Source: a virus
IMG/VR virus record: IMGVR_UViG_3300022744_000001
Coordinates: 130,022 to 194,021 of that record
Length of the DNA stretch: 64,000 bases
Direction: 5' to 3' (one strand)
Part shown: piece after piece, positions 19,353 through 61,920 of the stretch
Position numbering within the stretch: the first letter of the stretch is position 1
Layout: each line of letters begins with the position of its first letter
Notes under the pieces: model-generated
Seen by the model: only the letters and a program-made list of their open reading frames with translations
Told to the model about the DNA's origin: nothing
The model's database searches: none
Program-made: the position numbers and the translations under genes

Positions 19353-19721
19353 TCAGAGGTCCTTCAAGGCGACCCAGGCCCCATCAACCTCGACCTCGAT
19401 ATCGTCGGGGCCGACCTTCTTTTTGCTCACGAACTGGTGTCCTAAGAAGCGGCCGTACTTGTTCTGGTCCGGCTTCGTGTCCGCAGGCCACGGGAATCGA
19501 AGCAGCACGTTTCCATAGTGCTGTTTGATGTAGTCGGGGTCGTCTGAGAAGAACAGGTGAGCCCCGTCATCGTACTCGCTGTACGCATCGTTGAATGACG
19601 CAGCGGCTCCAGGAATGAGCCCTCGGCTTTTGATGGTGGTCAGCCTATCGGACCGTGTCCCATGGTAGGCGAATCGGCTGGCCAGGAACTTCCGAGCTAC
19701 GCGCAGAGGTAAGTGCGTCAT
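19353..19721 (-). CDS. hypothetical protein, possible ADP-ribosyltransferase-fold (YHGT motif)
   Basis: FAYHGTRSDRLTTIKSRGLIPG resembles the HGT strand of the Tpt1/ART fold; this is weak. Confidence 0.5.
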   Translation of the reverse strand: MTHLPLRVARKFLASRFAYHGTRSDRLTTIKSRGLIPGAAASFNDAYSEYDDGAHLFFSDDPDYIKQHYGNVLLRFPWPADTKPDQNKYGRFLGHQFVSKKKVGPDDIEVEVDGAWVALKDL

Positions 19722-20082
19722 GGTGCATAAACCCCCGACACAAGTAGATCACATCCCGCTCGAGCAATGCCTCGACCGTCGGGTCTACAAGCTCCGAGCG
19801 CGTGGTTTGCGCCTTGGGGTCTTCAACGCGTTGAACTCCAGGTTCATCGGCATTCGATGCGAGTGGGGCATCGACGTCCTGGGGCAGGAACTCCACTGGG
19901 ACGTGGGCGAGCCACATGGCACGGCAAAGCCTATGGAGCTGCTCCCAGACGTGCTATCCAGCCACGTCCCCCTGGTCAAGCACCTCCCATCCAAAGAGGG
20001 CGAGAGGGTGCTCCAAGAGAACGAGGAGCTGTTCGCATTCCTCATGGACGTCGAGCAGCGCTACCTCGACTGGCGGGGCTGA
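19720..20082 (+). CDS. hypothetical protein
   Basis: High GC3 in the coding frame; its ATG overlaps the CAT of the divergent gene's start; competing antisense ORFs exist. Confidence 0.3.
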   Translation: MVHKPPTQVDHIPLEQCLDRRVYKLRARGLRLGVFNALNSRFIGIRCEWGIDVLGQELHWDVGEPHGTAKPMELLPDVLSSHVPLVKHLPSKEGERVLQENEELFAFLMDVEQRYLDWRG

Positions 20083-20083
20083 G

Positions 20084-20650
20084 CTACTTGCCCAGCTGGT
20101 CGAAGGCGGGCGGGCTCCACACCGGCGGGCGGTCGTGAAGCTCAGGCAGCGGGGCGGGCTCCAGGGCGGGCTCTGGGGCTGCCTGGTCTGGGAGAGCTTC
20201 GGCCATCTGCGGCTCCGAGATGGAAGCATCGACCACGGGGGCAGGCGGAGGCTTGGGCTTTGTCGGCTTTTTCATGCCGGAGCCGATTCGACCGTACCCA
20301 CTGCCGAACCCGCTACCGCTACCCGATCCAGCGCCATGGCCAATCGTGCCGAAGCTGCCCAGGCCGATGCCCGCAACGGGCTCGGGAGGGGCCGAGATTT
20401 TCTTCGGCTGCTGCGCTTCCATGTAGCCCTCAAGATAGGACCGGAGCGCCACGAGGTCGTCATGGTTGCGAGCAGTGGCCGCAGAAGCCTCCTGGACGGC
20501 TTTCGCAAGCGTCTCGTAGGACATCTTCGTGCTCGTCTGGTCCTGGGGTTTGAAGGCCGCTCCGATGGCCGCAACGAGGGCGGTCAACGCTGTTACCAGC
20601 GTCACCCATTCTTTGACGGGGCTCGAGCTTTTGGGGTCGGTTTCAGCCAC
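20084..20650 (-). CDS. membrane-anchored Gly/Pro-rich protein
   Basis: GTG start preceded by AGGAGG; one TM helix, then a GSGSGSGFGSGYG run, then a PKPPPAPV linker (TonB/anti-sigma-like architecture). Confidence 0.6.
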   Translation of the reverse strand: MAETDPKSSSPVKEWVTLVTALTALVAAIGAAFKPQDQTSTKMSYETLAKAVQEASAATARNHDDLVALRSYLEGYMEAQQPKKISAPPEPVAGIGLGSFGTIGHGAGSGSGSGFGSGYGRIGSGMKKPTKPKPPPAPVVDASISEPQMAEALPDQAAPEPALEPAPLPELHDRPPVWSPPAFDQLGK

Positions 20651-20697
20651 AACTACCTCCTGTGAAAGAAAGGCGCACAAGAGGTGTACTGGTCGGG

Positions 20698-22158: not shown

Positions 22159-22343
22159 GGTATCTCCGGTGTTTAATCGTAGCGATGGGAAACCCAAAGG
22201 GCCAGAGCGAAGCCAAGAAGCCCCGCAACAGCCGCAGGCCACCAGGGGGCGGGGACGTAGATAGCCATGGCGGTCCCAGCGCTGGCACCCCCAGCAAGGC
22301 CGGTAACGAGGCGCGTGAGGGTGTTCGGTTTGTCTGTGACTCG

Positions 22344-22553
22344 ATGCGGCATCTTGTCTGCGTCCCCTATACTCTCGCGAATTTACACCGGATGGCGGAA
22401 ATCCTGGGAATCGGGCGTCACTGGTTCCATCGGGCCAAGTACCCCCACTACGACATCCCGAAACGCCGCGTCCGCGAGATCATGGGCCGCGTCGAGGTCG
22501 TGACACCACGCGAGCTTTTGCGTATTGTCCAGGCGGGAGTCAAGGATGTCTGA
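22344..22553 (+). CDS. DUF4031-family protein
   Basis: ILGIGRHWFHRAKYPHYDIP matches the hWFH...PHYD signature of DUF4031. Confidence 0.55.
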   Translation: MRHLVCVPYTLANLHRMAEILGIGRHWFHRAKYPHYDIPKRRVREIMGRVEVVTPRELLRIVQAGVKDV

Positions 22554-26091: not shown

Positions 26092-26457
26092 TCATCCATG
26101 GGCGCCTCGGCGTGCCAGGTTCTTGGCTGTCCCGCTCTTCTCACGCCCCGGGCGGACCCAGGCGATATCGTGCGTCGAGGCCGCGGTCATCGCTTCGTCT
26201 CGCTCACGGTCGCTCTTGAAGCCGCCCACTGTGCGAAACTGGAGCCCGAAGTTGTTCCGAGGCGTTTCGAACATATGGTAGACGGTGACCCGATTGCACA
26301 CAGACAAGAACAACTGTGCATGGGAATCCGCGCCCCGGGCATCGCCCACGACGAACGAGGCTCCGGCCGCGAGCGCGTCTCGGATTCGGGGCTCGTAGTG
26401 TTTGGTGAACTCCTCGCGGGTAAGGTCGAGGTGACCGGAGATGAAGTAAATCATCAC
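26092..26457 (-). CDS. SLOG/YpsA-like Rossmann-fold protein
   Basis: IYFISGHLDL...ASFVVGDARGADSHAQ fits the SLOG-type glycine-rich nucleotide-binding pattern. Confidence 0.5.
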   Translation of the reverse strand: MMIYFISGHLDLTREEFTKHYEPRIRDALAAGASFVVGDARGADSHAQLFLSVCNRVTVYHMFETPRNNFGLQFRTVGGFKSDRERDEAMTAASTHDIAWVRPGREKSGTAKNLARRGAHG

Positions 26458-27863: not shown

Positions 27864-28529
27864 GTGGCGGACGAGAAGAAACCAGAGAAGCCGAAGAAAA
27901 GCTGGACAACGCTGTTCGTGCGGGACGAAGAGGAAGCCCCCGCTGCGGCCCCTCCCGTGCCTGCACCTATCCCTGGGGCGGCTACCCGCCCTGCGGTGAT
28001 TCCTATGCCCGCTCCCATGCCTGTGGCGGAGGTGGTGGACCAGGGGATGGTGGACCGCATCCTCGGCGCGCTCCTGGAGTCGGCTCCGGAGGGGTACAAG
28101 GATTTCGTCGCGGACCTGTCCACGCTGGCGGAGGCTCTGCCGACTGAGGACCTGCTCTACAAGGCCGCGCTACGGCTCGCGGTGAGCAAACAGGGGCACT
28201 CGGTGCCCGGGCTCCTGCTCGACTTCGACAAGTGCCTTCGCTTGCTCGAGGAACAGGACCGGTCCTTCAACGTTGATGTGGAAGAGCAGGTCAAGAATCG
28301 GGTCGGGGGTCGCCAAGCCGAGGTCGCTCGCTTGGAAGGGGAAATCAACGCGCTGCGAGAGCAGATGGCCCAGCTCCAAGCTCAGCGAGATGCCGAAGCA
28401 GCGGCCATCGCAACCGACACGGCGAAAATCGAGTCGGCCAAGGTGAAGTTCAAGGGGGCCTACCAAGTGGCCTACTCCCAGCTCCTCGACCAGAAGAACA
28501 AGCTTTCGCTGTATGGCGGAAAGGGTTGA
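27864..28529 (+). CDS. coiled-coil protein (PspA-like composition)
   Basis: GTG start; Pro/Ala-rich N-terminus then long Ala/Glu/Gln heptads. Confidence 0.65.
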   Translation: MADEKKPEKPKKSWTTLFVRDEEEAPAAAPPVPAPIPGAATRPAVIPMPAPMPVAEVVDQGMVDRILGALLESAPEGYKDFVADLSTLAEALPTEDLLYKAALRLAVSKQGHSVPGLLLDFDKCLRLLEEQDRSFNVDVEEQVKNRVGGRQAEVARLEGEINALREQMAQLQAQRDAEAAAIATDTAKIESAKVKFKGAYQVAYSQLLDQKNKLSLYGGKG

Positions 28530-29581
28530 ACGTCGTGAACCAGATCGTGAAAAAGAGCTACTGGGAGAAGCCAGAGGGCAAGTTGGGGGCAGGTCTTCTC
28601 ACGGTAGGAACCGTGGGCGCTGGCATCGCAGGACTGCTCTTCTGGTCGCAGATCGTGACCTGGGTAATCGCCCTGCTCGCGAACACGCTGATCGCAGCGG
28701 GTTTGGGCATTGCCGTCATCACCTTGTTTTTCCTGGCCACGAACCCCAACATTCAGGCGGCCATTGAGTTCCTCTTCAAGCGAGGGACGTACAACCTGAC
28801 CAACGCGATCTACACGATCGACCCCATCGGCGTGCTCCGTGTCGCGGTCATGAACATGCGCAAAAAGGTCAAGGAAATGACCGCGCTGAAGCAAGACCTT
28901 GCGCAGCACGTCAAGCTCCTTGCTCGCACGATCCGGCAGAACGAGGCGGAAAGCCAGAAGGCAGCCCAGAGTCTCGAGAGACTGGACAAGTACGATCGCT
29001 TCGTCGAGAAGCGGCAGGCTGAACGTCTCGCCAACTCAAACGTGGACTATCGTGCGGCCCTCAAGCAGCTCCAGGGTATCGACGCGTGCTTGGACATCTA
29101 CATCAAGGTGACGACGGCGCTGGCCCAGGACTCGGAGAACGAGGCCAACAACCAAGAGAAGGACCGCAACAACCTGCTCAAGAGTCACCGCATCCTCAAG
29201 GCCGCGGCCAAGACTTTGAAGGACCATGAGGCGGCGATGGATATGTTCAACCAGGGCTTGGAAATCCTGGTCGCTGAGCGTACGAACCTTCTCGCTGAGG
29301 TGGACAACTTCGCCCAAATCATCACGGATGCCGTGGGCAAGATCGACGTCGATGCTGGCATCGTCGGTCCCGACGGCAACACGGTCAACGAGTGGGAGCA
29401 GAACGCCCACGTGCTCGAGAAGAAGGTGGACCTGCTTCTCCTCGGTCCCGGTCAGCCCAACCCGCTGAACACAGCGATCGACGCAACCCCCAAGAACCTC
29501 GCCTACGCGAACCGAACCACGAAGAGGGTCACTGGTCGTTCGACCTATACCGACCTGTTCGGCGACGACGACAAGAAGTGA
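28526..29581 (+). CDS. membrane-anchored coiled-coil protein
   Basis: Two N-terminal TM helices then ~250 aa of coiled-coil; TTG or GTG start. Confidence 0.7.
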   Translation: MNVVNQIVKKSYWEKPEGKLGAGLLTVGTVGAGIAGLLFWSQIVTWVIALLANTLIAAGLGIAVITLFFLATNPNIQAAIEFLFKRGTYNLTNAIYTIDPIGVLRVAVMNMRKKVKEMTALKQDLAQHVKLLARTIRQNEAESQKAAQSLERLDKYDRFVEKRQAERLANSNVDYRAALKQLQGIDACLDIYIKVTTALAQDSENEANNQEKDRNNLLKSHRILKAAAKTLKDHEAAMDMFNQGLEILVAERTNLLAEVDNFAQIITDAVGKIDVDAGIVGPDGNTVNEWEQNAHVLEKKVDLLLLGPGQPNPLNTAIDATPKNLAYANRTTKRVTGRSTYTDLFGDDDKK

Positions 29582-29617
29582 ACGTTTTCTAGGGCAAGAA
29601 AGAAGGAATCAAATCAA

Positions 29618-31306
29618 ATGGCATCGAGACTAACACCCCTGACCAAAGGCATCATTGGCGCCGTTCTTTTCGGCGGGATGGCCTACGGGTACATGCACCT
29701 GAAGAAGAACGGCACCATCCCCGCGAGCCCCGAGGCCGCGGAGGCTGCCAACAACGCCAGTGGCGGGGGAGAGGCGTTCCCGGCCCTTGGCGGCGGAGGC
29801 GGCGGCAACAAAGCCTTCCTGAGCGACGTAGGCACCATGGCGAACCCCCTCACGGTGAGCCTGGTGGAGTTCCAGGGGTACGCAGGCTTGCTCGCTGCGA
29901 ACGGTGGCTCCCTGGTCACCCAGCCGGGCTCCATCATGGCGGAGAAGGGAGTCTACGTGAAGGCCATCCTCCAGAACGACGTCCCGGCCCTGCCCGCCCT
30001 GTTTGGCTCGGGCATCGCCCACTGCGCGTGGCGAACCTCGGACTTCTGGGCTCAGGAGCAGCCGAACGTTCGCACGGCGGGCTTCGACGGCCGCGGCATC
30101 GTGATCGTGGACAACACCCAAGGTGCGGACGCGATCATCGCCAAAGACCCCGCGATTCGTAGCGTCGAGGACTTGGCAGGGCACACCGTGGGCCTCTTGG
30201 AGTTCACCCCGTCCCACGGCCTTCTGCTCTACGCCCTCGAGAATTCGAGCCTCAGCGCCCGGAAGCAAGCATCGGTCAAGGTCATCCCCACCAACATCGA
30301 TGAGGGGCTCGCTGGGGTCCGCGCCCAGCTCGAGAGCAGCAACGTGGATGCCGTGGTGCTCTGGGACCCGGAGCTGTCCGTGGCTCTGGAGACCATCCCC
30401 GGTGCCCACGTGGTCTATTCGACCAAGGACGCCAGCTCGCTCATCTACGACGTCATGGTATGCGACAACCGAATCGTGTCGGACAAGGCCAACGACGACG
30501 TCCTGACCGCTTTCGTGGATGGCTGGCTCGAGGGCAACAAGCGGGTCAATGCCAACCCGAAGCTCGGCACCCAGGCGCTCGTCGCCAACGAGGAGATGTA
30601 CAAGCTCCTGGCTGGAAAGAAGAGCCCCGAGTTCATCACGCACCTGTTCAAAAACCTGGTGCTCACCAACCTGACGGACAACGTGCGCATCCTCGGCTTG
30701 GCAGGAGACACAAACCAGTACGAGAACGTCTATGCCATGTTCGATCGCATCTACCGCGGCACGAAACGCACGCTGAAGGACCAGAACGCACCGATCATTC
30801 AGCCGAGCAACTCGTTCGAGTACAAGTACATCAAGAGGTTGCAGGCGAAGGACTCGTCCGTGACGGCCGCGGCTCAGAAGCCGGAGTTCGTGTTCACGGC
30901 AAGCGAGGCCCAGGTGGCGGCCAAGAAGGCCCCCGTGCTCACCAAGCCGGTCGAGATCAACTTCGCCACCAACAGCACGGAGTTGACCAAGGACGGTGAG
31001 AACGTCATCGACAACGACCTCATGCCGATCCTCCAGAGCAACAGCTCGGCCTACGTGCGCGTCAGTGGCAACACGGACTCGACGGGCTCCGCCGCGGTCA
31101 ACCATCGCATCTCCTACGGCCGCGCCAACGTCGTGGTGAAGTACATGGTCGAGCAGTGGGGTATCAGCCACGACCGTTTCCTGGTCGAAGGTAACGGCCC
31201 GGATAAACCCCTCTGCAACGAGCTGAGCCCCGAAGACGGCCTCTCCCTTGAGCAGTGCCGTGCCCGTAACCGCACAACCCGAGTAGCTGTCCTCCCAAGA
31301 GAATGA
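29618..31306 (+). CDS. ABC transporter substrate-binding protein (NMT1/SsuA-like) fused to a C-terminal OmpA/MotB-like domain
   Basis: N-terminal TM/signal; SsuA/TauA-like periplasmic binding fold; the C-terminal ...VSGNTDSTGSAAVNHRISYGRANVV...NRTTRVAVL matches the OmpA-C peptidoglycan-binding motif. Confidence 0.8.
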   Translation: MASRLTPLTKGIIGAVLFGGMAYGYMHLKKNGTIPASPEAAEAANNASGGGEAFPALGGGGGGNKAFLSDVGTMANPLTVSLVEFQGYAGLLAANGGSLVTQPGSIMAEKGVYVKAILQNDVPALPALFGSGIAHCAWRTSDFWAQEQPNVRTAGFDGRGIVIVDNTQGADAIIAKDPAIRSVEDLAGHTVGLLEFTPSHGLLLYALENSSLSARKQASVKVIPTNIDEGLAGVRAQLESSNVDAVVLWDPELSVALETIPGAHVVYSTKDASSLIYDVMVCDNRIVSDKANDDVLTAFVDGWLEGNKRVNANPKLGTQALVANEEMYKLLAGKKSPEFITHLFKNLVLTNLTDNVRILGLAGDTNQYENVYAMFDRIYRGTKRTLKDQNAPIIQPSNSFEYKYIKRLQAKDSSVTAAAQKPEFVFTASEAQVAAKKAPVLTKPVEINFATNSTELTKDGENVIDNDLMPILQSNSSAYVRVSGNTDSTGSAAVNHRISYGRANVVVKYMVEQWGISHDRFLVEGNGPDKPLCNELSPEDGLSLEQCRARNRTTRVAVLPRE

Positions 31307-31551
31307 CCGACTGGGAGACAGCCTGGGTTGTCCTTGTGGTGGTGCTTGTGCCGCCGCTCCTGTCCCCCTTCCTGGCAGTCTGGGTGTACCCGATTCAGGC
31401 GGGGTTGTACCTGCCGTTTTGCGCGCTGCTCTACCTGGTCAGTCGGAAGGGTCGAGATAGTCGAGAGAGGTTTACCCAGGGGTTCTGTGTTGCAGTTTTC
31501 GTAGCCCAAATAGCGGGCTTCGTTCTTTACCTAGCCGCGCACATCGAATGA
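31303..31551 (+). CDS. small membrane protein
   Basis: Two TM segments. Confidence 0.45.
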   Translation: MTDWETAWVVLVVVLVPPLLSPFLAVWVYPIQAGLYLPFCALLYLVSRKGRDSRERFTQGFCVAVFVAQIAGFVLYLAAHIE

Positions 31552-31557
31552 GGAGTC

Positions 31558-32343
31558 ATGTGGAATCCGTATAAATCGCTGCCCGCCACGACGGGGAACG
31601 CTTTGAGTGTAGGGTCGGTTGCTGTGGTGCTCTTGGTCTGGTCGCTGCTGAGCGGCTTGGACATTGTGCCGCCCTCCAAGCTCCCGTCGCCCTGGGAGAC
31701 CGCACAGGCTCTTGTTCACTTGGCTTGGGACGGCAAGGAGAGCTTGCTCGGGCAAGCCATCCTGGCCTCGGTCATGCGCATCGTGTGGGCCAGCATCTTC
31801 GTGTTCGTCATCGGCATCATCTTCGGCGTGGGAATGGGGGCTTCCCCGGTCATCAATGCGATCATCTCGCCCCTCATTGACCCGTTTCGTTCTGCCCCGG
31901 TGGCGGCGCTTCTGCCCATCCTGATCATGTGGTTTGGCATCGGCGAGACCATGAAAGTCGTGTTCCTGTACATCGGCGCCGTGGTCTACTTCATCCCCAT
32001 GGTTCGGGATGCGGTTCGTAGCGTCCCACAGAACTACTGGATCAGTGCCTACGACTTGAACGCAACGAAGTTCGAGTCGGTGATGAAAGGCGTGGTCCCC
32101 CTGGCCAAACCCCGTATCGCGGATGCCTTCGTGGCGGCAGTGTCCATCGAGTGGACGTACATCACGGTGGCGGAGTTCGTGAATGCGCAATCCGGGCTCG
32201 GCCAGATCATCTCGAATGCGAAGCGGTTCTCAGCGATGGACAGCATCTTTGCCACCATCGGCGTGATCATCGCGCTCGCCCTCATCACCTACCACGGCAT
32301 GATGGCGATCAAAAAGAACCTCTACCCCTGGGAAGTCGAGTAG
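31558..32343 (+). CDS. ABC transporter permease (SsuC/TauC/NrtB-type)
   Basis: Six TM helices with a BPD-type permease loop. Confidence 0.85.
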   Translation: MWNPYKSLPATTGNALSVGSVAVVLLVWSLLSGLDIVPPSKLPSPWETAQALVHLAWDGKESLLGQAILASVMRIVWASIFVFVIGIIFGVGMGASPVINAIISPLIDPFRSAPVAALLPILIMWFGIGETMKVVFLYIGAVVYFIPMVRDAVRSVPQNYWISAYDLNATKFESVMKGVVPLAKPRIADAFVAAVSIEWTYITVAEFVNAQSGLGQIISNAKRFSAMDSIFATIGVIIALALITYHGMMAIKKNLYPWEVE

Positions 32344-32345
32344 CC

Positions 32346-32684
32346 ATGGAAGTTCGCCTTCGAAGGGATACCTCCCGACCTACCGAGTACATGATGCGCT
32401 GGCTTGGTGCTGTAGCGGCCCTCCACGCGTTTCGGGAGCACCAGGACCGAACCAAGCGGCCCACTGCATGGTCGCATCACGATACTTTGGCTCTCATCGC
32501 CACGAATGTTCGCAAGCATATGACCGACCCGAGATGGTTTCTCCGGCCCACGGAGGAAGACATCACGAAGGTCATCGCGTACGGGCACGAGAACTTTCGC
32601 GAATACCTCAGTGATGGGTTGAGAGACCTGAACCAACTTCAAACCTTCTTTGATCTTCTCAACCAGGACGCCGTGGCATCATGA
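32346..32684 (+). CDS. hypothetical protein inside the ABC operon
   Basis: 113 aa between the permease and ATPase genes. Confidence 0.5.
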   Translation: MEVRLRRDTSRPTEYMMRWLGAVAALHAFREHQDRTKRPTAWSHHDTLALIATNVRKHMTDPRWFLRPTEEDITKVIAYGHENFREYLSDGLRDLNQLQTFFDLLNQDAVAS

Positions 32685-33544
32685 GTGAAAACACGAAATA
32701 CCCCATGCTTGTCCTTGACAAGATCACGCAGGACTTCCCTTCCCCAGAGGGTCCGGTACGAGTTCTCGACGACATTTCACTCGCCTTCGACGGTCCTGGG
32801 ATGAACATGCTCATGGGGCCCTCGGGCTCGGGCAAGTCCACGCTCATGCGGCTCATGGGCGGCGTGCGCATTCCTTTCGACGTGAAGTGCCCGACGTCCG
32901 GCCGAATCTTCATCGACGGCAAGGAAGTGGGAGACGACCAGCACGACGACGTGGTGACCGTCTTCCAAGCGTACAACAACCGGCCCGACCTCACTGTGTT
33001 CGAGAACGTCATGTTCCCGTTCACCCTGAAATACTGGCGAAAGAAGGTCTCCAAGGAAGAGGCCAAGAAGCGGGTGACCGACATACTCGAGGTCGTGGGT
33101 CTGGCGGACAAGGCCAAGCTCCGGCCCGCGGCCCTCAGCGGCGGCCAGAAGCAGCGTGTGGCCATCGCTCGAGCCCTGGCCCTCCGCCCCCGCATCCTGC
33201 TCATGGACGAACCTTTCGGCGCGCTCGACGCCCAGACCCGGGCGGACCTGCAACGGTTCATGGTCAAGATGCACAAGGAATACCCGTGCCTCACCATCTT
33301 CGTGACCCATGACGTCACGGAGGCCATCACGTTGGGGGATCGGATCATCGTGCTCTCTGCTCGACCGGCACGCATTGCAGAGCAGATCGTGGTCGCCCAA
33401 CCCCAAGACCAGCGGGCGGAATGGCTGCACTCGGCGGAGGCCAAGCTGTACGAACAGCAGATCATCCAGGTCTTGCAGAACACGAAAAGCCCTGGCCAGG
33501 TTCGTGTCAGCGTCGGCGTGAGCCCCGCTCCGGCAACCCCGTGA
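32681..33544 (+). CDS. ABC transporter ATP-binding protein
   Basis: Walker A GPSGSGKST, signature LSGGQKQR, Walker B ILLMDEP, H-loop VTHD. Confidence 0.9.
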   Translation: MSENTKYPMLVLDKITQDFPSPEGPVRVLDDISLAFDGPGMNMLMGPSGSGKSTLMRLMGGVRIPFDVKCPTSGRIFIDGKEVGDDQHDDVVTVFQAYNNRPDLTVFENVMFPFTLKYWRKKVSKEEAKKRVTDILEVVGLADKAKLRPAALSGGQKQRVAIARALALRPRILLMDEPFGALDAQTRADLQRFMVKMHKEYPCLTIFVTHDVTEAITLGDRIIVLSARPARIAEQIVVAQPQDQRAEWLHSAEAKLYEQQIIQVLQNTKSPGQVRVSVGVSPAPATP

Positions 33545-33726
33545 CCGACAAGCGCAAGATTTTGATCCGAACCCTTCTCGCGGAAACGGGTGCTTCCTAC
33601 AGCACGTGTGCGAAGTACCTCGACAAGCACAAAGGGAACTACGACACGGCCCTGGCTGAGCTGAAATTCGGCCCGAAAAAGAAGGGAGGACGACGTGCCC
33701 GCAGTGCAGAAGACCCCAAAGCCTAG
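33541..33726 (+). CDS. small UBA-like protein
   Basis: GTG start; ILIRTLLAETGASYSTCAKYLDKHKGNYDTALAEL resembles the EF-Ts N-terminal UBA-like helices. Confidence 0.45.
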   Translation: MTDKRKILIRTLLAETGASYSTCAKYLDKHKGNYDTALAELKFGPKKKGGRRARSAEDPKA

Positions 33727-33973
33727 ATGCAAGCACGAGGTCGAAGAGGGCGGTGGGTCGCACTCGTGGTTCACTCAGTGTAGCCGAGCCGAGCACCACA
33801 CGGGGGAGCACCGCTACCACCTCTCGTTCAAGGAAATGTTGGCCGAGGGCACGGCGGTCTACAACATCGAGCGCGAAACCAAGTGCCGTGAGCAAGAAAT
33901 CGTAAAGCATCACGAGCAAATCGCGAAGCTGCAAGAAGAGATCAAGAACCTACGAACGAAGGGCGAGCCATGA
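33695..33973 (+). CDS. hypothetical protein
   Basis: GTG start preceded by GGAGGA. Confidence 0.5.
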   Translation: MPAVQKTPKPRCKHEVEEGGGSHSWFTQCSRAEHHTGEHRYHLSFKEMLAEGTAVYNIERETKCREQEIVKHHEQIAKLQEEIKNLRTKGEP

Positions 33974-44944: not shown

Positions 44945-44975
44945 CCGATACTGTGTTTATGGCCTTGACATAGAC

Positions 44976-46791: not shown

Positions 46792-47667
46792 TTAGGGGCG
46801 TGCTTGTCGGTTTCCGTGTACGCGACCGATCGCCTGCTGAAACCCCAAGGTGCTCGGGATGTACGTCGGAACCGGGCAATACTCCTTCCGCGCTCGGACC
46901 TGAAAAATCTCCTTCGTGTTGAGACACAGGGCGGTCAAGTGGCCGCCGTGCACCGCTCCCGTGTCGATGCCCCAGCACTCGACTCCCGTGGCTTCGTTGA
47001 CGTGCCAGAGCGGTTGGGTGAGGTTGAACGCCTCGTGTCCGAACACGACGTTGCTGGGCCCGTCCCATTTGCGTGTCCAGTGGTAGGCTTCGGGCTTGGG
47101 CGGATAGCCGAGTAGCTCGGGCTTGGCGTAATCGACGGGCACGAACTTCTTCTCGTCCGTGACCCACATCAGCCGCATGACGTCGTTCAAGTCTTGCTGC
47201 TCGAGCGCAACCCCGGGCATGAGGCCGCCATGGACCAGGGTCCAATGCGTGTGCTGGGTGAAAGACGTCCAGTGCCTCCCCTCCCCTTGGGTCACGAAGT
47301 TCCCCGGCCACAGCTGCACCATGTGCGGGAGCGCCTTGAGCCACTCCAGGTCTTCCTGGCTCAGCTTCGCATTGGCCGCGGCGTCCGCGGGCTTCAGCGG
47401 TCGCATGTTGTTGGGCCGACCCGTGGTGAGCTTCAGAAGCTCGTTCTTCCGCCATCGGATGTGGATCTCGTCGTGGTTGCCCTTCACGGCTTTGAAGCCG
47501 CTCTCGCGGATGAACCGAACGACCTCAGCCCCATAAGGCCCCTTGTCAAGGAAGTCCCCCACGAAATAGACCGTGTCCCCTTGGCCAGGACCGATCTTAT
47601 CGAGCAAGTCACGTAGCTCGTAGTAGCAGCCGTGAACGTCACCAATGCAGTAAATTTTGGAGTCCAT
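46792..47667 (-). CDS. Ser/Thr phosphatase-type metallophosphoesterase (PP-lambda/ApaH-like)
   Basis: GDVHGC, GDFLDKGP and GNHD motifs. Confidence 0.85.
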   Translation of the reverse strand: MDSKIYCIGDVHGCYYELRDLLDKIGPGQGDTVYFVGDFLDKGPYGAEVVRFIRESGFKAVKGNHDEIHIRWRKNELLKLTTGRPNNMRPLKPADAAANAKLSQEDLEWLKALPHMVQLWPGNFVTQGEGRHWTSFTQHTHWTLVHGGLMPGVALEQQDLNDVMRLMWVTDEKKFVPVDYAKPELLGYPPKPEAYHWTRKWDGPSNVVFGHEAFNLTQPLWHVNEATGVECWGIDTGAVHGGHLTALCLNTKEIFQVRARKEYCPVPTYIPSTLGFQQAIGRVHGNRQARP

Positions 47668-47683: not shown

Positions 47684-47983
47684 CTAGTCGCACACGGCTT
47701 CGACTTCAGAAATCGTCAACGACACAGGGTCGCCATCTTTGACATCCATCTCGAGCACGGGGTCGTTGTCCAAAACCCCATGCAGAGTTTCACCCTCGAC
47801 CCGACCAATCTTGACCCACATATGCTCAATGCGGGTCTCTTGGGTTCGCGGGTCCCGCCCCTCGAAAGCTTTCTTGACAAACTTTCCGACCAACGTCGAA
47901 GGGTTAACCCCTGTAAACTTCCCACTCTTTGGGGCATGATCGGGGCATACTAAACCGATATTCGCTATGCTTTCTCGTGCCAT
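47684..47983 (-). CDS. hypothetical protein
   Basis: Internal start MARESIANIG. Confidence 0.5.
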   Translation of the reverse strand: MARESIANIGLVCPDHAPKSGKFTGVNPSTLVGKFVKKAFEGRDPRTQETRIEHMWVKIGRVEGETLHGVLDNDPVLEMDVKDGDPVSLTISEVEAVCD

Positions 47984-48262: not shown

Positions 48263-48763
48263 ATGGAACAAGTTGAGATCCGGAATGGTTACGCGTTGTT
48301 CTGGGGGCAGTGGCCGTCCAACTGGATGATCTCCCCCATGGTCATCGACGGGGTGACTTACAACTGTGTCGAGCAGTACATGATGGCGGAGAAAGCACGC
48401 CTCTTCAAAGACACAGAAACCCTCGCGAAAATCCTGGAGACTCAGCACCCGGCCGACCAGAAGATTCTCGGGCGGGAGGTGCGCGGGTACGACGATGCTA
48501 AGTGGGCAGCCGTGCGCTACGGGGTGGTTTTGCGCGCGAGCATCGAGAAGTACCGCCAAAACTACGAGTTGAAGCGTCTCCTCTTTGCTACGGGAGATGC
48601 CATCTTCGTGGAGGCCAGCCCGAAGGACCAGATTTGGGGCATCGGAATGGCGCGTAGCCATCCTGACGCAACCAACCCGGCTAAGTGGCGCGGGGAGAAC
48701 CTCCTCGGAAAGGCCATCACCGAGGCGCGCAAGATCCTGAGAGACCTGGAGGGCTCGGTGTAA
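48263..48763 (+). CDS. NADAR (YbiA/DUF1768) domain protein
   Basis: FWGQWPSNW...YNCVEQYMMAEKA...ATGDAIFVEASPKDQIWGIG matches the NADAR signature. Confidence 0.8.
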   Translation: MEQVEIRNGYALFWGQWPSNWMISPMVIDGVTYNCVEQYMMAEKARLFKDTETLAKILETQHPADQKILGREVRGYDDAKWAAVRYGVVLRASIEKYRQNYELKRLLFATGDAIFVEASPKDQIWGIGMARSHPDATNPAKWRGENLLGKAITEARKILRDLEGSV

Positions 48764-51820: not shown

Positions 51821-52351
51821 ATGCTCATCACCGCAGACCAGCTCATTGCTCATGCTGTTGGCGACTACATCCTCCAATCGGACTGGATGGCCAACACCAA
51901 AACCCAGAAATCCAGCGCGGCCCTCGCGCATGTCCTGACCTACTTCCTCCCCTTCCTGTTCCTCACGACCTCGTGGAAGGCATTGGCGGTCATCATCGGG
52001 ACGCACTTCGTGATCGACCGTTGGCGCTTGGCTCGCTACGTTTGCTGGGCCAAAAACTTCTTGGCACCCAAGTGGATCGTTCCGATTGTCCCGCTTGCCC
52101 AGCCTTTGTCTGGGGGCTCCATCAAGCTCAACGCAGGTCGAGCCGGGGTGAGCGAGGATGACTCCGAGGACAACGAGCAAACCACCATCGCCAAGGTCTC
52201 CAAGCCGATTCGGAACCACCCGTGGTCTGAGTGCTCCGGCACGGGCTACTACAAGGAGCGGCCCCCATTTCTTGCCGTATGGCTGCTCATCGCAGCCGAC
52301 AACATCATGCACGTGATTATCAACGGGCTCGCGCTCAAGTACCTTGGTTGA
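51821..52351 (+). CDS. DUF3307-like membrane protein
   Basis: HAVGDYILQSDWMA matches the DUF3307 N-terminal motif. Confidence 0.55.
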   Translation: MLITADQLIAHAVGDYILQSDWMANTKTQKSSAALAHVLTYFLPFLFLTTSWKALAVIIGTHFVIDRWRLARYVCWAKNFLAPKWIVPIVPLAQPLSGGSIKLNAGRAGVSEDDSEDNEQTTIAKVSKPIRNHPWSECSGTGYYKERPPFLAVWLLIAADNIMHVIINGLALKYLG

Positions 52352-55782: not shown

Positions 55783-55805
55783 GTTGTGGTGTAATCGAGC
55801 GCATG
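55783..55805 (+). promoter_or_regulatory. start-proximal promoter-like motif (class 1)
   Basis: TGTGGTGTAATCGAGCGCATG. Confidence 0.45.
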
Positions 55806-56381
55806 CCAACACTGAAAGACATCAACCTTCTTGCGTTTGGGCACACGATTCAGCTCGCCGGTGCCATCTTCCAGGGGGAAGATCGCACCCTTCTCTGCTT
55901 TTTCCCGGAAGATGGGCCCGACGGGGCTCTCGAGCCTTTCGAGCTTTCCCAGGAGGACTGGCAGGCCCTGGTGAAGCAGACCGACCTTCTCGAGACCGAG
56001 GTGCTCGCCAAGGCGTCCGACGGCACCCTGGCCAAGATCGTCCTGCGCAAGAGCCAGCGGCAGATCGATGCAGGGGTGCAGTGGAAGGTCTTTCAGCGGG
56101 ACAACTACTCGTGCCGCTACTGCGCCATCACCGGTGTGCCCCTCACGGTGGACCATCTGGTGACCTGGGAGGAAGGCGGGCCGACCACTCCGGAGAACCT
56201 GCTCAGCGCCTGCAAGAAGTGCAACAAGACGCGAGGGAACCTTTCCTACGCGGATTGGCTCAAGCACCCGCGTTACCAGGACCTGTCCAGGAAGCTCAGC
56301 GAGACTGTGCGAGCGGCAAACGAGGCAGTCGTGGCCACCCTGGCTGCCATCCCCCGCAACCTGCACCAGAGGACGCGCTGA
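55803..56381 (+). CDS. HNH endonuclease
   Basis: CRYCAITGVPLTVDHLV...LLSACKKCNKTRG; TGTGGTGTAATCGAGCGCATG motif at the start. Confidence 0.75.
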   Translation: MPTLKDINLLAFGHTIQLAGAIFQGEDRTLLCFFPEDGPDGALEPFELSQEDWQALVKQTDLLETEVLAKASDGTLAKIVLRKSQRQIDAGVQWKVFQRDNYSCRYCAITGVPLTVDHLVTWEEGGPTTPENLLSACKKCNKTRGNLSYADWLKHPRYQDLSRKLSETVRAANEAVVATLAAIPRNLHQRTR

Positions 56382-57893: not shown

Positions 57894-59651
57894 TCAATCC
57901 CAGAGGTTGTTCACCGTGTTGCAGGTAGAGAGAACAACCCACCCGCCTTGCGACGTGATCCAGACCATCCGTGCCGAGGTGTTCGTGCCGATGTCGAGGC
58001 CGTTATTTTGGTTGCTCGTGAATGACACGTACACCAGGTCTGTACCGCTGTTCACGCCGTTCACAATCTCTTTGACTGCGCCGTCCGTACCATCGGCAAG
58101 ATGAGCGTAAGTGGTCCCGCCCGTCGTGTTGATGACGACACAAAACTGCTTCGTTGGGTCGAGGGGGGCCGGGTTCTCGTTGACATTGTTGTCAGTCGTT
58201 AACGTGACGACTTCGAACCCTTTGACCATGGCAGCAAGGTTGTCGAGTGCCTGAGCGACCTGCACTGGTGCGCTGGTGCCCCAGTTGGCGGGAGTCGCCG
58301 GGGTGTACCCGACAAGGTTCGCCTGGTCCAAACGGGTGAGGGTGAGCTGTCCGCTGTGGCCGGGTTGGTTGAGAGAAACTTGGCTTTCAGCGTTGGTCGT
58401 GATGGACAGGTAACCGCTGCCACGGATCGTGTTATCTGCGACCTGGCTGCTTCCGGAAAGGTACAAATCAAGACCGTAAGAGCTGAGTTCAATCAGCTCT
58501 CCATCCGGACTCCCAGACCCCTGAATTGTAGTGTTCTCGAGGTAGACAGTAGCTCCACCTTGACTCAGGTTGATGCCTGCAACACTCGAACCGTTATAAA
58601 ACGCGCAGTTTTTGGCGTAAATATTGCGGCTAAGGGGGGTGTAGGGTGCCGTTGCGCTTACGTTGAAAACGACTGAGAGGTTTTCAACCCTGAGATCTGC
58701 GTCGTTATTGAGCTGAACCCCCTCGTTGAAGATCATAGCGGAATTCAGATTTGGGGCAGCACCCCGGAATGTGATGTTCTGCTGGTCGTAGGTTCCGGCC
58801 GGGACAGCATCGTTGCTGTCGATGACAACCACGCAGGAGCGACCATAATCCTGTGCCGCAGACAGGGCCTCCGCAAGCGTGGGGTATATGTATGGGGCTC
58901 GTGTATTCGAGCGCCAGATAAAGACCGGCTCCGGAACTTGCTCGAGTTGTTCATACGAGAGTTCACCCAAAAACGAGGGTTGACTCGAACTAAACGAACT
59001 GGAGAGATCGACTCGGACAGAAGCGAAGGAAACGTTGTCCCCGGAGAGAATGTCGTAACCCGCGTCGCTTTGCTCAAAGAGCGAAAGAGTTACACCGCCC
59101 TGATTCACTACACGGAAGCAACTGCTGTTGCTGAAACCACCTCCGTAGCAGGTGACCGACAATCCCGCTTCACCAGAGCCATCGATGAGAACGAGGGGAG
59201 CTGAACTTTGGTTGTCAAGGTAGGCGTGATCAAACACCCAGTCCTCGTATACGCCAGCAATGGTGATTGGAGTTCCGTTGCTGGCGCTCTGAAGAGTCAG
59301 GTTTTTGACTGTCCCCAAATGAGTCACGGTTGCTGGGTTGCCCTCAGCGTCTCCGAGAACCAGTCGGTCTCCATTGGTGCGGTACCCACAGAGCGTGACT
59401 CCAGCGAAATCGTACGTCCCCGATCCTGTGGGGGCCCCGCCTTGAATCAAGGAGGTATCGACGTAAATCGTTGCTACCCCGGCTGCCTTCGCTGCGTCAT
59501 ACGCTTCTTGAAAGGTTGCGTAGACGTTGCCCGCGGGGCTTGGCTCGCTGTTTCGGTAGACGAAACTCGATGAGCTGCCCCCACCTCCGCCCCCTTGACC
59601 GATGTTTTTGACGATAGTGCCGAAGCCGTCGTTTTGAATCGCCATGGTCAC
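57894..59651 (-). CDS. tailspike/tail-fibre-like right-handed beta-helix protein (pectate-lyase fold)
   Basis: 585 aa, rich in Asn/Ser/Thr/Gly repeats of ~22 aa as in parallel beta-helix coils; N-terminal Gly-rich linker; local GC is lower than the window. Confidence 0.7.
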   Translation of the reverse strand: MTMAIQNDGFGTIVKNIGQGGGGGGSSSSFVYRNSEPSPAGNVYATFQEAYDAAKAAGVATIYVDTSLIQGGAPTGSGTYDFAGVTLCGYRTNGDRLVLGDAEGNPATVTHLGTVKNLTLQSASNGTPITIAGVYEDWVFDHAYLDNQSSAPLVLIDGSGEAGLSVTCYGGGFSNSSCFRVVNQGGVTLSLFEQSDAGYDILSGDNVSFASVRVDLSSSFSSSQPSFLGELSYEQLEQVPEPVFIWRSNTRAPYIYPTLAEALSAAQDYGRSCVVVIDSNDAVPAGTYDQQNITFRGAAPNLNSAMIFNEGVQLNNDADLRVENLSVVFNVSATAPYTPLSRNIYAKNCAFYNGSSVAGINLSQGGATVYLENTTIQGSGSPDGELIELSSYGLDLYLSGSSQVADNTIRGSGYLSITTNAESQVSLNQPGHSGQLTLTRLDQANLVGYTPATPANWGTSAPVQVAQALDNLAAMVKGFEVVTLTTDNNVNENPAPLDPTKQFCVVINTTGGTTYAHLADGTDGAVKEIVNGVNSGTDLVYVSFTSNQNNGLDIGTNTSARMVWITSQGGWVVLSTCNTVNNLWD

Positions 59652-60091
59652 ACCAGCCTGACGAAAAGGGTTTGAGAGGACGTGAGCGTGTTTCGCACGG
59701 TTGTCGTGGTGAACGTGTTGTTGTGGGAGATATCCACGGTGCCCGTGGCATCTACCCAGGTAGAACCTACTTGCTTCAGCACCAAGACTTGAGGAGGAAG
59801 CCCGAAGCCATGCGAGAGGGTCAGCGTATCCCCTGCACCGCCGTAGGCGTCGAGCGTGTCCTGGTCCTCCAGGGTAACGATGCCCTGGTTCTTCCAGGCA
59901 TGAAGGTCACCCTTGAATGCACTACGAAGCACCTCAGAGGTGTTTGGTAGGTACACGAATTGGCCGGGCGCCAGGTAGCGATCTTCGCCCGCTCGCCCCT
60001 CTACCTGGGATGCATGGGTGATTCGCAGGTCGCGAAGGTAAAGCCTTCTGGTCCCAACGTTGGTGATTTTCACAGGGCCTCCATCCATCAA
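59648..60091 (-). CDS. putative virion/tail-associated protein
   Basis: Immediately upstream of the tailspike gene on the same strand; beta-rich composition. Confidence 0.5.
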   Translation of the reverse strand: MMDGGPVKITNVGTRRLYLRDLRITHASQVEGRAGEDRYLAPGQFVYLPNTSEVLRSAFKGDLHAWKNQGIVTLEDQDTLDAYGGAGDTLTLSHGFGLPPQVLVLKQVGSTWVDATGTVDISHNNTFTTTTVRNTLTSSQTLFVRLV

Positions 60092-60163
60092 AGCCCCAAA
60101 AAAGGATCACCTGCTGAATGAAGGTTCGATTTTTCGGTGTCATTCGCCTATGGAGGCACACAC

Positions 60164-61414
60164 ATGCCGGTAGGCGGTAAAGCAATTGTCTTGGGAGGGG
60201 GCACGTTCTTTCACGTGAGGCCGCATCTGGCCCTAGCCGCCCCCGCATTCGGAACAACGGCGGATCAGATCGGGGCCATGCTCCGGCAAAAGGGGTGGGA
60301 GGACACCACGGTTGTCAAAACCCGCATGGCCGGAGGAGATGCCAGCCTCGTCACGAACAATGACGTGGCCAAACTCCTCAATCTCATCCTGCAAGACCGG
60401 AATGTGAAAGTGCTCGTGATGAACGTAGCGCTGTGCGATTTCGAGGGCTCTATCGCGAACGAGAATGGGCTGACCCTCAGCGGGAAAGACCAACCTCGGC
60501 TCAAGACCTCGGAGGGCGGGCAGGTCATGCAGCTGGTTCCGGCGGACAAGCTCCTGGGCCGCATCCGGAAAGAGCGCAAGGACATTTTCCTGGTCGGGTT
60601 CAAAACGACCGCAGGGGCGAGCTACGAAGAGCAATACCGAGCCGGGCTCGAGCTGCTCAAGAAGTCCTCGTGCAACCTGGTTTTCGCGAACGACGTGCAA
60701 ACCCGCCAGCAAATGATCATCACGCCGGAGCAAGCGATCTACGGCGAATCCATGCACAGGTATGAGGCGCTTGAGCTGCTGGCTCAAATGACCACGGAGC
60801 GCGCCAACCTCACGTTCACCCGTTCCACCGTAGTCGAGGGCAAGGCAGTGCCCTGGAGTGCGACAGAGGTCCCCGCCTCTTTGCGCAAGGTCGTGGACCA
60901 CCTGATCAAGCGAGGGGCCTACAAGCCGTTCCTGGGCTCAACCGTCGGGCACTTCGCGGTGAAGGTGGCCGAGGGCCGGTTCCTCACCTCGATTCGCAAA
61001 TCGAACTTCAACAAGCTGGACGAGACCGGGCTCGTTCTGGTGGAGTCGATGGGCAACGACCGAGTCATCGCCCACGGGGCTCGACCCAGTGTCGGCGGGC
61101 AGTCCCAGCGGCTGATCTTCGGGGATCACCCGGACACCGACTGCATCGTCCACGCACACGTGCCTTTGCGCGACGAGGCCGGGGTCATTCCGATCGTCCC
61201 CCAGCGCCCCTACGAGTGTGGCTCGCACGAATGCGGGAAAAACACGAGCGAAGGTCTCCACGACTTCGGAGGCGGGCTCAAGGCCGTCATGCTAGACCAG
61301 CATGGGCCAAACGTCGTGTTCAATCGCAACATGGACCCCGACCGTGTGATCGAGTTCATCGAGCGAAATTGGGACCTGACCCGAAGCACGGATGGGGTAC
61401 TGACAGCTCCATGA
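60164..61414 (+). CDS. fusion protein: CoaB-like (phosphopantothenate-cysteine ligase fold) N-domain + class II aldolase/adducin-like C-domain
   Basis: N-terminus: GGGTFFHVRP...TTVV and ...IFLVGFKTTAGASYEEQYRAGLELLKKSSCNLVFANDV parallel the CoaB GGT..VR and VGFAAET...LDLICANDV motifs. C-terminus: RPSVGGQSQRLIFGDHPDTDCIVHAHVP parallels the class II aldolase PSSE..H..IY..RPDV.AVVHTHS metal-site motif. Confidence 0.7.
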   Translation: MPVGGKAIVLGGGTFFHVRPHLALAAPAFGTTADQIGAMLRQKGWEDTTVVKTRMAGGDASLVTNNDVAKLLNLILQDRNVKVLVMNVALCDFEGSIANENGLTLSGKDQPRLKTSEGGQVMQLVPADKLLGRIRKERKDIFLVGFKTTAGASYEEQYRAGLELLKKSSCNLVFANDVQTRQQMIITPEQAIYGESMHRYEALELLAQMTTERANLTFTRSTVVEGKAVPWSATEVPASLRKVVDHLIKRGAYKPFLGSTVGHFAVKVAEGRFLTSIRKSNFNKLDETGLVLVESMGNDRVIAHGARPSVGGQSQRLIFGDHPDTDCIVHAHVPLRDEAGVIPIVPQRPYECGSHECGKNTSEGLHDFGGGLKAVMLDQHGPNVVFNRNMDPDRVIEFIERNWDLTRSTDGVLTAP

Positions 61415-61920
61415 AGGACACCTACTGCTCCCATTGTGGCGCTCTCCACCAGGACGATGACGCCTACCCTCGCAAGTGCCGCGAGTGCTTCGAGTACGTC
61501 TATCAGAACCCAACCCCTGTGGTAGTGGTTCTGTTGCCGATTGGGGAAGGGCTTCTGACCGTTCGCCGCGCTATCCCGCCGCAGGTAGGTCAACTCTGCT
61601 TGCCCGGGGGCTTCCAGGACATCGAGACCTGGCGCAACGGGTGCGCGCGAGAACTCAAGGAGGAGGCTGGCATCGTTGTGGACCCGAACGCGATCCAGCT
61701 GTTTCGTGAACCCTGCTCCACTGCTTACTGCGACATTCAGCTCATCTTCGGGCTCGCTCCCGGCTTTGCCTCGGAGGAGGAACTCCGCGCACAGGCCACG
61801 CCCCATGACGACGAAGTTAGTGAGTTGGTCGTGATTTACGAGGACTTTGGGGAGCTAGCGTTCCCCACTCACACGGAGATGGCTCGAGCCTACTTCGAAG
61901 GACGCCTTCAGAAGACGTGA
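61411..61920 (+). CDS. NudC-like Nudix hydrolase with N-terminal Zn-ribbon
   Basis: CSHCG...CREC then the Nudix box GGFQDIETWRNGCARELKEEAGI; ATGA overlap with the upstream gene. Confidence 0.8.
   Translation: MKDTYCSHCGALHQDDDAYPRKCRECFEYVYQNPTPVVVVLLPIGEGLLTVRRAIPPQVGQLCLPGGFQDIETWRNGCARELKEEAGIVVDPNAIQLFREPCSTAYCDIQLIFGLAPGFASEEELRAQATPHDDEVSELVVIYEDFGELAFPTHTEMARAYFEGRLQKT

Follow-up and report, generated by a model that had tools for sequence, protein, structure and literature searches.

NAD+ and ADP-ribose genes dispersed across an accessory region of a probable huge phage, with a candidate arm for RNA repair

Do phage genes that handle nicotinamide adenine dinucleotide (NAD+) and ADP-ribose (ADPr) work as one system when several of them lie in the same region, and what would they work on? 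This question is raised by a 64,000-nucleotide stretch of viral DNA (IMG/VR record IMGVR_UViG_3300022744_000001, positions 130,022 to 194,021), here called the window. In this window, an earlier note had recognised a Tpt1/KptA RNA 2'-phosphotransferase, a NADAR domain protein, a Nudix hydrolase, a SLOG-like protein and a small protein reminiscent of the ADP-ribosyltransferase (ART) fold, and had read them together as a counter-defence toolkit against NAD-targeting host immunity. The five genes were found to be independent members and are not one operon or one system. The explanation that we hold to be somewhat probable is that they are part of the NAD+/ADPr repertoire already known from large phages. 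In it, an esterase, an RNA ligase and Tpt1 would make up an RNA-repair arm, the Nudix hydrolase and NADAR would possibly clear by-products, and the SLOG and small ART proteins would sit alongside, unlinked. NAD-dependent RNA repair is the best-supported sub-module of this explanation.

All five open reading frames (ORFs) were present as claimed and were confirmed as genes, since each shows the periodicity in G+C at third codon positions (GC3) expected of coding DNA and each was also called as a gene in public assemblies of the same sequence. They span 42 kb, lie on both strands and have about 85 other genes among them. No conserved synteny was found when about 130 proteins of the window and its flanks were compared by tblastn with the Tpt1 loci of three annotated jumbo phages, with loci of the small ART protein on huge contigs and with a locus of phage LR756511 that holds a homologue of the gene next to the Nudix gene. 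The matches were the query genes themselves and one NADAR gene 15 kb away. No related locus was found for Tpt1 in IMG/VR. Genes for NAD salvage or NAD reconstitution and Macro, 2H and cRec genes were not seen in the annotated sequence examined, which consisted of about 78 kb (the window plus flanks) of a 448,224-bp contig.

The claim of a full-length Tpt1/KptA was borne out. Its gene (g95) lies at 45871-46476 on the plus strand, where 45871 is the start of the public gene call and the first in-frame ATG is at 45865. The protein matched PF01885 with E=2.6e-53 (181 bits against a cut-off of 26) and the NCBIfam equivalog NF002014 at 263 bits, where the cut-off is 239. It aligned end to end with the biochemically characterised Tpt1 of Runella (E=1.3e-58), as it did with the Tpt1 of Clostridium thermocellum. 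Both lobes and an R-H-R-R tetrad are kept, the latter as R18-H19 (in VLRHHP), R77 (RIRASQGHS) and R121 (MARHHVHLS), positions that we take to be the catalytic tetrad of Tpt1. Judged by its sequence, the protein is unambiguously a genuine NAD-using Tpt1/KptA. The known chemistry of Tpt1 is the removal of a 2'-phosphate from RNA, for which NAD is used. The Tpt1 operon is immediately preceded by an endonuclease VII/HNH-like gene (44850-45593, plus strand). This gene apart, the small genes around Tpt1, the Nudix gene and the ligase gene gave nothing informative in PHROG scans.

On the other side of Tpt1, 316 bp from its operon and convergent with it, is a gene for a metallophosphoesterase of the lambda-phosphatase/ApaH/Pnkp type (g97; 46792-47667, minus strand; PF00149, E=1e-15). 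The NADAR gene follows 0.6 kb beyond. The esterase matched the NCBIfam models for ApaH, bacterial Pnkp (TIGR04075) and PrpE below their cut-offs, and it matched phrog_246 (NinI-like phosphatase) and phrog_8238 (a Pnkp-like 'RNA ligase' family). We consider it a candidate RNA-end-healing esterase of the lambda-phosphatase/Pnkp clade. Clostridium thermocellum Pnkp and the phage lambda phosphatase are reportedly an end-healing module, as Keppetipola and Shuman are said to have described. The window protein belongs to the same calcineurin-like clade and has partial matches to TIGR04075 and to the Pnkp-like PHROG. Unlike Pnkp, it stands alone with no fused kinase or ligase, and it scores equally with ApaH and PrpE, all of these scores being below cut-off.

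The RNA ligase gene starts 1.4 kb downstream of the Nudix gene on the same strand. The window holds its 5' part (63291-64000, plus strand; 236 of 337 codons), and the gene continues past the end of the window to about 64304. The full 337-residue protein has a precomputed PF09414 match, matched phrog_24030 with E=5.8e-128, matched HNH PHROGs at its N-terminus and carries a KxDG motif (EKMDGEN). A separate HNH endonuclease gene was seen at 55803-56381 on the plus strand, which, with the HNH head of the ligase, brings the HNH-type modules in the window to three.

The earlier note had described the Nudix protein as NudC-like, a label that proved weakly true. The 169-residue protein (61411-61920, plus strand; PF00293, E=1.4e-8) has an intact Nudix box, GGx5Ex7REUxEExGU (G65-I87), preceded by CxxC...CxxC (C6, C9, C23 and C26). 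The family, the box and the zinc ribbon therefore stand, and a four-Cys ribbon directly before an intact Nudix fold (alignment residues 4-90) is what the protein shares with NudC. In contrast, NudC was rejected as its identity because the NudC N-terminal domain and the SQPWPFPxS motif are missing and the score with NF001299, 19.8 bits, falls far short of the cut-off of 158. The best PDB match, and the nearest solved relative, was the uncharacterised Zn-ribbon Nudix protein 3CNG (2.5e-8), followed by NadM-Nudix (1.7e-3) and NudC (1.8e-3). The NCBIfam matches were all far under their cut-offs, the top ones being models of NadM-type ADPR pyrophosphatases (E ~5e-5), to which the protein has a weak similarity.

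The start of the Nudix gene overlaps the stop of the gene before it (ATGA), and the two are translationally coupled. This upstream gene (g119; 60164-61414, plus strand) encodes a 416-residue protein whose N-half resembles CoaB/DFP and whose C-half resembles a class II aldolase, with weak matches to PF04127 and PF00596. The N-half matches phrog_35624 and is found alone in Caulobacter CcrBL9/CcrSC and Pseudomonas PE09-type phages, and the C-half contains CIVHAHVP. A homologue with 51% identity is encoded in the 595-kb phage LR756511.1 (locus L013, 19546-21323). There, it is preceded by and coupled to an ORF that, by reading of the sequence, is nucleoside-deoxyribosyltransferase-like, instead of a Nudix gene. 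The coupled protein possibly belongs to a nucleotide-modifying pathway.

Surveys of jumbo phages have attributed KptA to the NAD-dependent repair of transfer RNA (tRNA) cut by RNases, in which RNA ligases and esterases of the 2H or calcineurin-like type take part (PMC9503650, PMC7824862). From the observed genes, folds, family memberships and conserved catalytic residues, we infer every substrate and the linkage of the following steps. Host ribonucleases would cut tRNA or messenger RNA. The metallophosphoesterase (46792-47667) would heal the 2',3'-cyclic or 2'-phosphate ends, the HNH-RNA ligase (63291 onward) would seal the break, and Tpt1 (45871-46476) would move the residual 2'-phosphate onto NAD+. 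The Zn-ribbon Nudix hydrolase and NADAR could plausibly degrade the ADP-ribose-derived (ADPr>P-type) by-products; alternatively, NADAR may strip ADP-ribose from guanine bases. The esterase beside Tpt1 and the ligase 1.4 kb from the Nudix gene fit RNA repair, which would be counter-defence against RNA-cleaving, not NAD-targeting, immunity. The Trl1-Tpt1 pathway of fungi and plants and the bacterial Tpt1 of Runella slithyformis are resembled in that a two-lobe Tpt1 with the R-H-R-R tetrad has an RNA ligase and an end-healing-type esterase nearby. The differences from the Trl1-Tpt1 pathway are that the esterase is a binuclear metallophosphoesterase and not a 2H cyclic phosphodiesterase, that the ligase is a PF09414 protein with an HNH head and is not Trl1-like, and that a kinase was not found in the 78 kb.

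Several observations weigh against RNA repair. NADARs were shown to be inactive on the phosphate-linked ADP-ribose that Tpt1-type enzymes produce (PMC11833690). The metallophosphoesterase resembles ApaH and Ser/Thr phosphatases equally well, and the Nudix gene, being coupled to an unrelated-looking CoaB/aldolase-like gene, may belong to another pathway. Tpt1, the esterase and NADAR are encoded on different strands, the ligase gene is 17 kb from Tpt1, and there is no conserved synteny around Tpt1 in the three annotated jumbo phages. No candidate for a P-loop polynucleotide kinase or a 2H protein was found in the window and its 8-kb right flank by a PHROG scan and by searches for Walker A and paired HxT/S patterns; the pattern searches turned up only an ABC ATPase and, within the metallophosphoesterase, a spurious match. 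Neither tRNA genes nor transfer-messenger RNA genes were found in the window, nor was any Rfam family at the gathering threshold. Since no kinase, 2H esterase or tRNA gene was found, the repair pathway is incomplete in the sequence examined. Huge phages often have many tRNAs and, as the window has none, any tRNA genes must sit elsewhere on the contig.

The NADAR assignment was upheld. The protein (48263-48763, plus strand) matched PF08719 with E=1.1e-47 (162.8 bits against a cut-off of 35.1) and TIGR02464, 'riboflavin biosynthesis intermediates N-glycosidase', with 150 bits against a cut-off of 73.7. Its closest solved relative is the NADAR of P. nicotianae (8BAU, E=1.7e-17), with E. coli YbiA (2B3W) ranking behind it. 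E37, K44, E117, D122 and W125 align with E43, K50, E125, D130 and W133 of the P. nicotianae protein, which are ADPr-contacting and catalytic residues in NADAR (Schuller et al., PMC11543638). NADARs, including T4 NADAR and those of the YbiA type, strip guanine-linked ADP-ribose made by DarT1 or ScARP (PMC11543638, PMC11833690). The window protein resembles these guanine-ADP-ribosyl hydrolases (DarT1-NADAR antitoxins, 8BAU, T4 NADAR and YbiA) in its membership of the Pfam family and in the ADPr-site and catalytic residues that it keeps. In contrast to them, it is not encoded beside DarT, and its domain begins near residue 19 and lacks the basic N-terminal extension typical of DarT1-associated NADARs. 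Also, position 117 is Glu, which gives a YbiA-type active site, whereas Asp is found in the DarT1-linked antitoxins and His has been reported in phage NADARs (PMC11543638). A DarT1-associated antitoxin, as in DarTG1, was rejected as its identity because there is no adjacent DarT or ART gene and the active-site variant is the wrong one (Glu117, not Asp).

Domain searches with hidden Markov models (HMMs) thus supported Tpt1, NADAR and the Nudix hydrolase, whereas the protein that the earlier note had called SLOG/YpsA-like was placed by structure prediction. This 120-residue protein (g58; 26092-26454, minus strand) gave no Pfam, PHROG or NCBIfam match, even at E values up to 1. An AlphaFold (AF2) model built from a 36-sequence alignment had a predicted local distance difference test score (pLDDT) of 94.6. 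Its Foldseek neighbours were DprA, LOG, ShosA and the MoCo-carrier protein, with template modelling (TM) scores of 0.61-0.72; the SLOG domain of ThsA was weaker (TM 0.50). A few low-TM matches to DHFR and TRPM were interspersed among them, and YpsA was absent from the top matches. Since the family profile found no solved SLOG and no other meaningful match among PDB sequences, the SLOG call comes from structure. The model supports a SLOG fold, that is, the Rossmannoid three-layer alpha/beta arrangement shared with LOG, DprA, YpsA and the C-terminal domain of ThsA. The specificity for YpsA, the HMM support and a demonstrable ADP-ribose link did not hold. As read from the sequence, the Gly-rich segments GDARGAD and PGREKSGT stand at the places of GGGxGxMG and PGGxGT in LOG. 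The protein differs from the superfamily in having no profile match to the Pfam SLOG families and in its length, which is shorter than that of LOG and DprA.

Homologues of the SLOG-fold protein fall into more than 1,147 clusters, which are 65-74% identical to it and all lack a Pfam domain. The motifs SGH, GDARGxD, YHMF.PRNN and WVRPGREKSGT are invariant in the family, a degree of conservation that is striking in an accessory gene of a phage. Its members, which have no fixed neighbours, come from Lak megaphages, from Hahella chejuensis (HCH_02576) and from numerous metagenomic contigs. The neighbourhoods in Hahella and on a 307-kb contig had nothing in common and held no NAD-related neighbours. 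Some members have an N-terminal extension of about 85 residues that is unrelated to any window gene. The protein is free-standing and probably binds or processes nucleotides.

The small protein with a YHGT motif, for which a Tpt1/ART-like fold had been suggested, was also supported. This protein (g44; 19353-19721, minus strand; 122 residues) is a minimal ADP-ribosyltransferase-fold protein that corresponds to the isolated NAD-binding lobe of Tpt1/KptA. Its AlphaFold model (pLDDT 87.9) gave Foldseek matches only to ADP-ribosyltransferases, and the top 50 were KptA/Tpt1, PARP10/12/15, diphtheria-toxin homologues, DarT1 and cholera toxin. Among PDB sequences, the family profile matched KptA only, in the YHGT...GLxP segment (E=0.003). 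It was colinear with residues 94-195 only of the window Tpt1 (hhalign E=1.9e-4, probability 47%), and weak PARP matches were seen in 6 of 32 family members. The predicted model has the split beta-sheet of the ART fold. It also shows two marks of the H-Y-E class, the NAD-contacting His of strand 1 and, on the core strand that follows, an aromatic residue. A compact split-sheet fold of about 110 residues with this strand-1 His is shared with other minimal ARTs (the KptA NAD lobe, the rifampin ART Arr, the Rhs toxins TreX/TreTu and the anti-CRISPR AcrIF11).

Conservation in the small ART family is concentrated on a few positions. Across 188 copies of the domain, Y19, H20, T22, G34, L35, P37, F58, R75, F76, P79 and W116 are 87-99% conserved (H20 in 96%, Y19 in 94% and F58 in 89%), and position 57 is F, Y or W in 98%. 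The signature Y-H-x-T...G-L-x-P, together with (F/Y/W)-F and an Arg that is invariant, points to a ligand site under selection. The canonical position of the catalytic Glu, where the fifth core strand begins, is Q96 in the window protein; in the family it is Q in 26%, E in 19%, N in 14% and S in 11%. Active ARTs without a catalytic Glu exist, such as Tpt1 (H-H-V) and PARP10 (H-Y-I). The protein was rejected as a second Tpt1 because it has no RNA lobe and no R-H-R-R tetrad. The position of the fourth tetrad residue, R121, is occupied by Gly53 in a hand alignment (HVHLSED/HLFFSDD), at a place where hhalign is gapped. The variable Glu position and an invariant Arg in LRFPxP, not seen in Tpt1, are further differences between the two. 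ART-PolyVal was rejected as well, since both domains stand side by side in one family protein (P0183) and the window protein has no Pfam match.

Searches for homologues of the small ART protein gave 5 close relatives, 32 by profile and 687 clusters by an exhaustive HMM search (E<=1e-3), so that the family has at least 687 clusters. A tblastn search of 50,697 deposited phage genomes yielded no homologue, and a profile search for related loci in IMG/VR found only 2, with one homologue on a 363-kb contig. More than half of the 167 family proteins retrieved were stand-alone (93 of at most 160 residues), and 39 were longer than 300 residues. Tandem arrays of two or three copies of the domain were seen in 14 proteins. 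Fusions combined the domain with Nudix and Topo-IB, with MuF and Topo-IB, and with PARP-like and DUF4116 domains. One member was fused to a 2H cyclic phosphodiesterase of the tRNA-ligase type (above the Pfam cut-off), an observation in favour of the RNA-repair reading. Other partners were ART-PolyVal, GNAT, mCpol and an ATLF-like domain, and several proteins of more than 1,000 residues had no other Pfam domain. These architectures look effector-like or polyvalent-protein-like, and the embedding of family members in MuF-containing, polyvalent-type proteins is a likeness to ART-PolyVal.

Most likely, the small ART protein is a stand-alone effector that would bind NAD+ and transfer ADP-ribose to a host or nucleic-acid target. 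A more specific proposal, which we think unlikely, is that the family, which has no Pfam, PHROG or NCBIfam model, is an undescribed ART clade. The clade would be a freed NAD lobe of Tpt1/KptA with a conserved site of its own (Y-H-x-T, G-L-x-P, (F/Y/W)-F and L-R-F-P-x-P) but without a fixed catalytic Glu, and it would ADP-ribosylate either the phosphates at the ends of RNA or DNA or some other target in the host. In huge phages it would work by itself; in injected polyvalent proteins it would be one blade among several, alongside domains such as 2H, Nudix, GNAT, MuF or Topo-IB.

An explanation along the lines of the earlier note is a dedicated toolkit against NAD-depleting or ADP-ribosylating immunity (DarT, Thoeris and TIR/SIR2 NADases), which we regard as rather unlikely. 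NADAR would remove ADP-ribose from phage DNA, the Nudix and SLOG proteins would destroy ADPr signals, and Tpt1 and the small ART protein would manipulate NAD/ADPr pools. The SLOG domain of ThsA is indeed among the structural neighbours of the window SLOG protein, but the latter is nearer DprA and LOG than ThsA (TM 0.65-0.72 against 0.50), and its homologues have no NAD-related neighbours. An AcrVA2-like anti-CRISPR homologue suggests an anti-defence neighbourhood; against a joint function, the five genes lack an operon or conserved linkage, and NAD-reconstitution, Macro and 2H genes were not found in the 78 kb. The Nudix protein is not NudC, and the known chemistry of Tpt1 is RNA 2'-phosphate removal. 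NADARs remove the guanine-ADP-ribose of DarT1 and ScARP (PMC11543638, PMC11833690), and the window NADAR keeps the catalytic residues, but it has neither the DNA-binding extension at the N-terminus nor the Asp that are typical of the DarT1-associated proteins. It has also been proposed that phage Macro, NADAR, SLOG and Nudix proteins are chiefly directed against soluble ADPr signals and toxins (PMC9503650). What survives of the toolkit is the family and fold calls and a plausible role in conflict, which matches the surveys (PMC9503650, PMC7824862). A coordinated anti-DarT/Thoeris/NADase system does not, given the dispersal, the lack of synteny, the missing NAD-salvage, Macro and 2H genes and a Nudix protein other than NudC. 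For NADAR in particular, a role against DarT, Thoeris or NADases is possible.

Another possible explanation, and in our view quite an improbable one, is that the genes have unrelated metabolic or housekeeping roles with no theme of NAD/ADPr conflict, and that they occur together because a genome of about 450 kb has about 800 genes. NADAR would then be a YbiA-like N-glycosidase of reactive riboflavin-pathway or other ribosyl metabolites, in line with its passing TIGR02464 and with its YbiA-type Glu. The Nudix and CoaB/aldolase-like proteins would serve nucleotide or cofactor metabolism, as the coupling of their genes and the pairing of the LR756511 homologue with a nucleoside-deoxyribosyltransferase-like ORF suggest. 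The SLOG protein would be a LOG/DprA-like binder of nucleotides or single-stranded DNA, DprA and LOG being its best structural neighbours. The small ART protein would be a non-catalytic NAD/ADPr binder or a pseudo-enzyme, for which the variable catalytic-Glu position speaks; however, its NAD-site signature is 87-99% conserved across 188 copies, and the domain recurs in effector-like proteins with MuF, ART-PolyVal, GNAT, Nudix and 2H domains. The dispersal of the genes would be expected if they were unrelated, but Tpt1 is unambiguously NAD-using, and NAD/ADPr domains co-occur in large DNA viruses above expectation (PMC9503650).

The preferred reading, a known large-phage repertoire with an RNA-repair arm, is closest to the NAD+/ADPr network described by Iyer, Burroughs, Anantharaman and Aravind (Viruses 2021, PMC7824862; 2022, PMC9503650). 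In that network, Macro, NADAR, SLOG and Nudix proteins are co-occurring, mostly stand-alone early genes of large phages that process ADP-ribose derivatives (PMC9503650, PMC7824862). The window shares with it the set of KptA, ART, NADAR, SLOG and Nudix genes, encoded as stand-alone genes of a very large genome, in an accessory or early region beside RNA-repair genes. It differs in being an uncultured example of about 450 kb to which none of 50,697 phage records is closely related, in having no Macro, 2H, cRec or NAD-salvage gene in the 78 kb, and in its SLOG and small ART families, which have no Pfam, PHROG or NCBIfam model.

The window has a G+C content of about 60%, and calling by codon usage gave about 123 genes, mostly small and on both strands. 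Exact protein matches placed it within the 448,224-bp metagenomic contig ena:ERZ27252002:k141_47206 (window position ≈ contig position - 7,116) and on a second, 90-kb Logan contig. A 6-kb megablast against the 50,697 phage genomes found no relative at the nucleotide level. Many window genes match PHROG families, and a 562-residue OmpA-domain protein (29618-31306) has homologues with 26% identity in Bacillus phage G (gp249), in Lak megaphages and in a 735-kb uncultured phage (LR756501). The length of the contig, the megaphage-like protein similarity, the PHROG matches and the homologue of the small ART protein on a 363-kb IMG/VR contig support the reading of a huge phage, and the window is probably an early or host-takeover accessory region of a genome of about 450 kb. 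Structural genes were not observed in the window, so that the contig could conceivably be a phage-like megaplasmid. The sole hint of a virion-associated gene in the window is a 583-residue protein (57894-59645, minus strand) with a weak match to a right-handed beta-helix (PF13229, E=7e-4), which could be depolymerase-like or tail-fibre-like.

Other features of the window were noted. The OmpA-domain gene is part of a co-directional, transporter-like cluster on the plus strand (27864-34836), with a BPD_transp_1 permease (31558-32343), the ABC ATPase (32681-33544) and several genes of unknown function, which is unusual cargo for a phage. A 384-residue protein (37644-38798, minus strand) with a precomputed PF26125 match is the AcrVA2-like homologue of a family of anti-CRISPRs against Cas12a, and it suggests that anti-defence genes reside in the region. 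A PadR-family regulator gene (42720-43019, plus strand) convergently overlaps a gene for a homologue of the SspB-like ClpXP adaptor (42991-43428, minus strand). A DUF6283 gene (18957-19352, plus strand) abuts the small ART gene and is convergent with it, and a DUF2314 gene (47684-47983, minus strand) lies between the metallophosphoesterase and NADAR genes. The remaining assignments were DUF4031 (22185-22553, plus strand), DUF3307 (51821-52351, plus strand) and T4_Y16D (5680-6411, minus strand).

A multi-enzyme NAD/ADP-ribose repertoire has already been described for giant and jumbo phages (Iyer et al. 2021, 2022), and finding Tpt1, NADAR, Nudix, SLOG and ART proteins in a 450-kb phage will not surprise specialists. 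The value of the locus is mainly confirmatory, as an uncultured phage of about 450 kb and 60% G+C joins the giant phages with this repertoire, and two of its genes without a Pfam, PHROG or NCBIfam match were placed by structure prediction. The trio of Tpt1, esterase and ligase is a target for asking whether phages run an RNA repair that generates 2'-phosphates. A phage NADAR of the YbiA type and a Zn-ribbon Nudix protein of the solved but uncharacterised 3CNG type are further biochemical targets. Less well charted are two families that lack a database model, the 120-residue SLOG family (more than 1,100 clusters, 65-74% identity) and, above all, the minimal KptA-like ART family (at least 687 clusters). 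If the small ART protein is active, the list of ADP-ribosylating effectors known from phages would grow. If its family is the clade proposed above, the protein would represent a new phage effector chemistry, tied to the modification of RNA ends rather than to the classical protein-targeting toxins.

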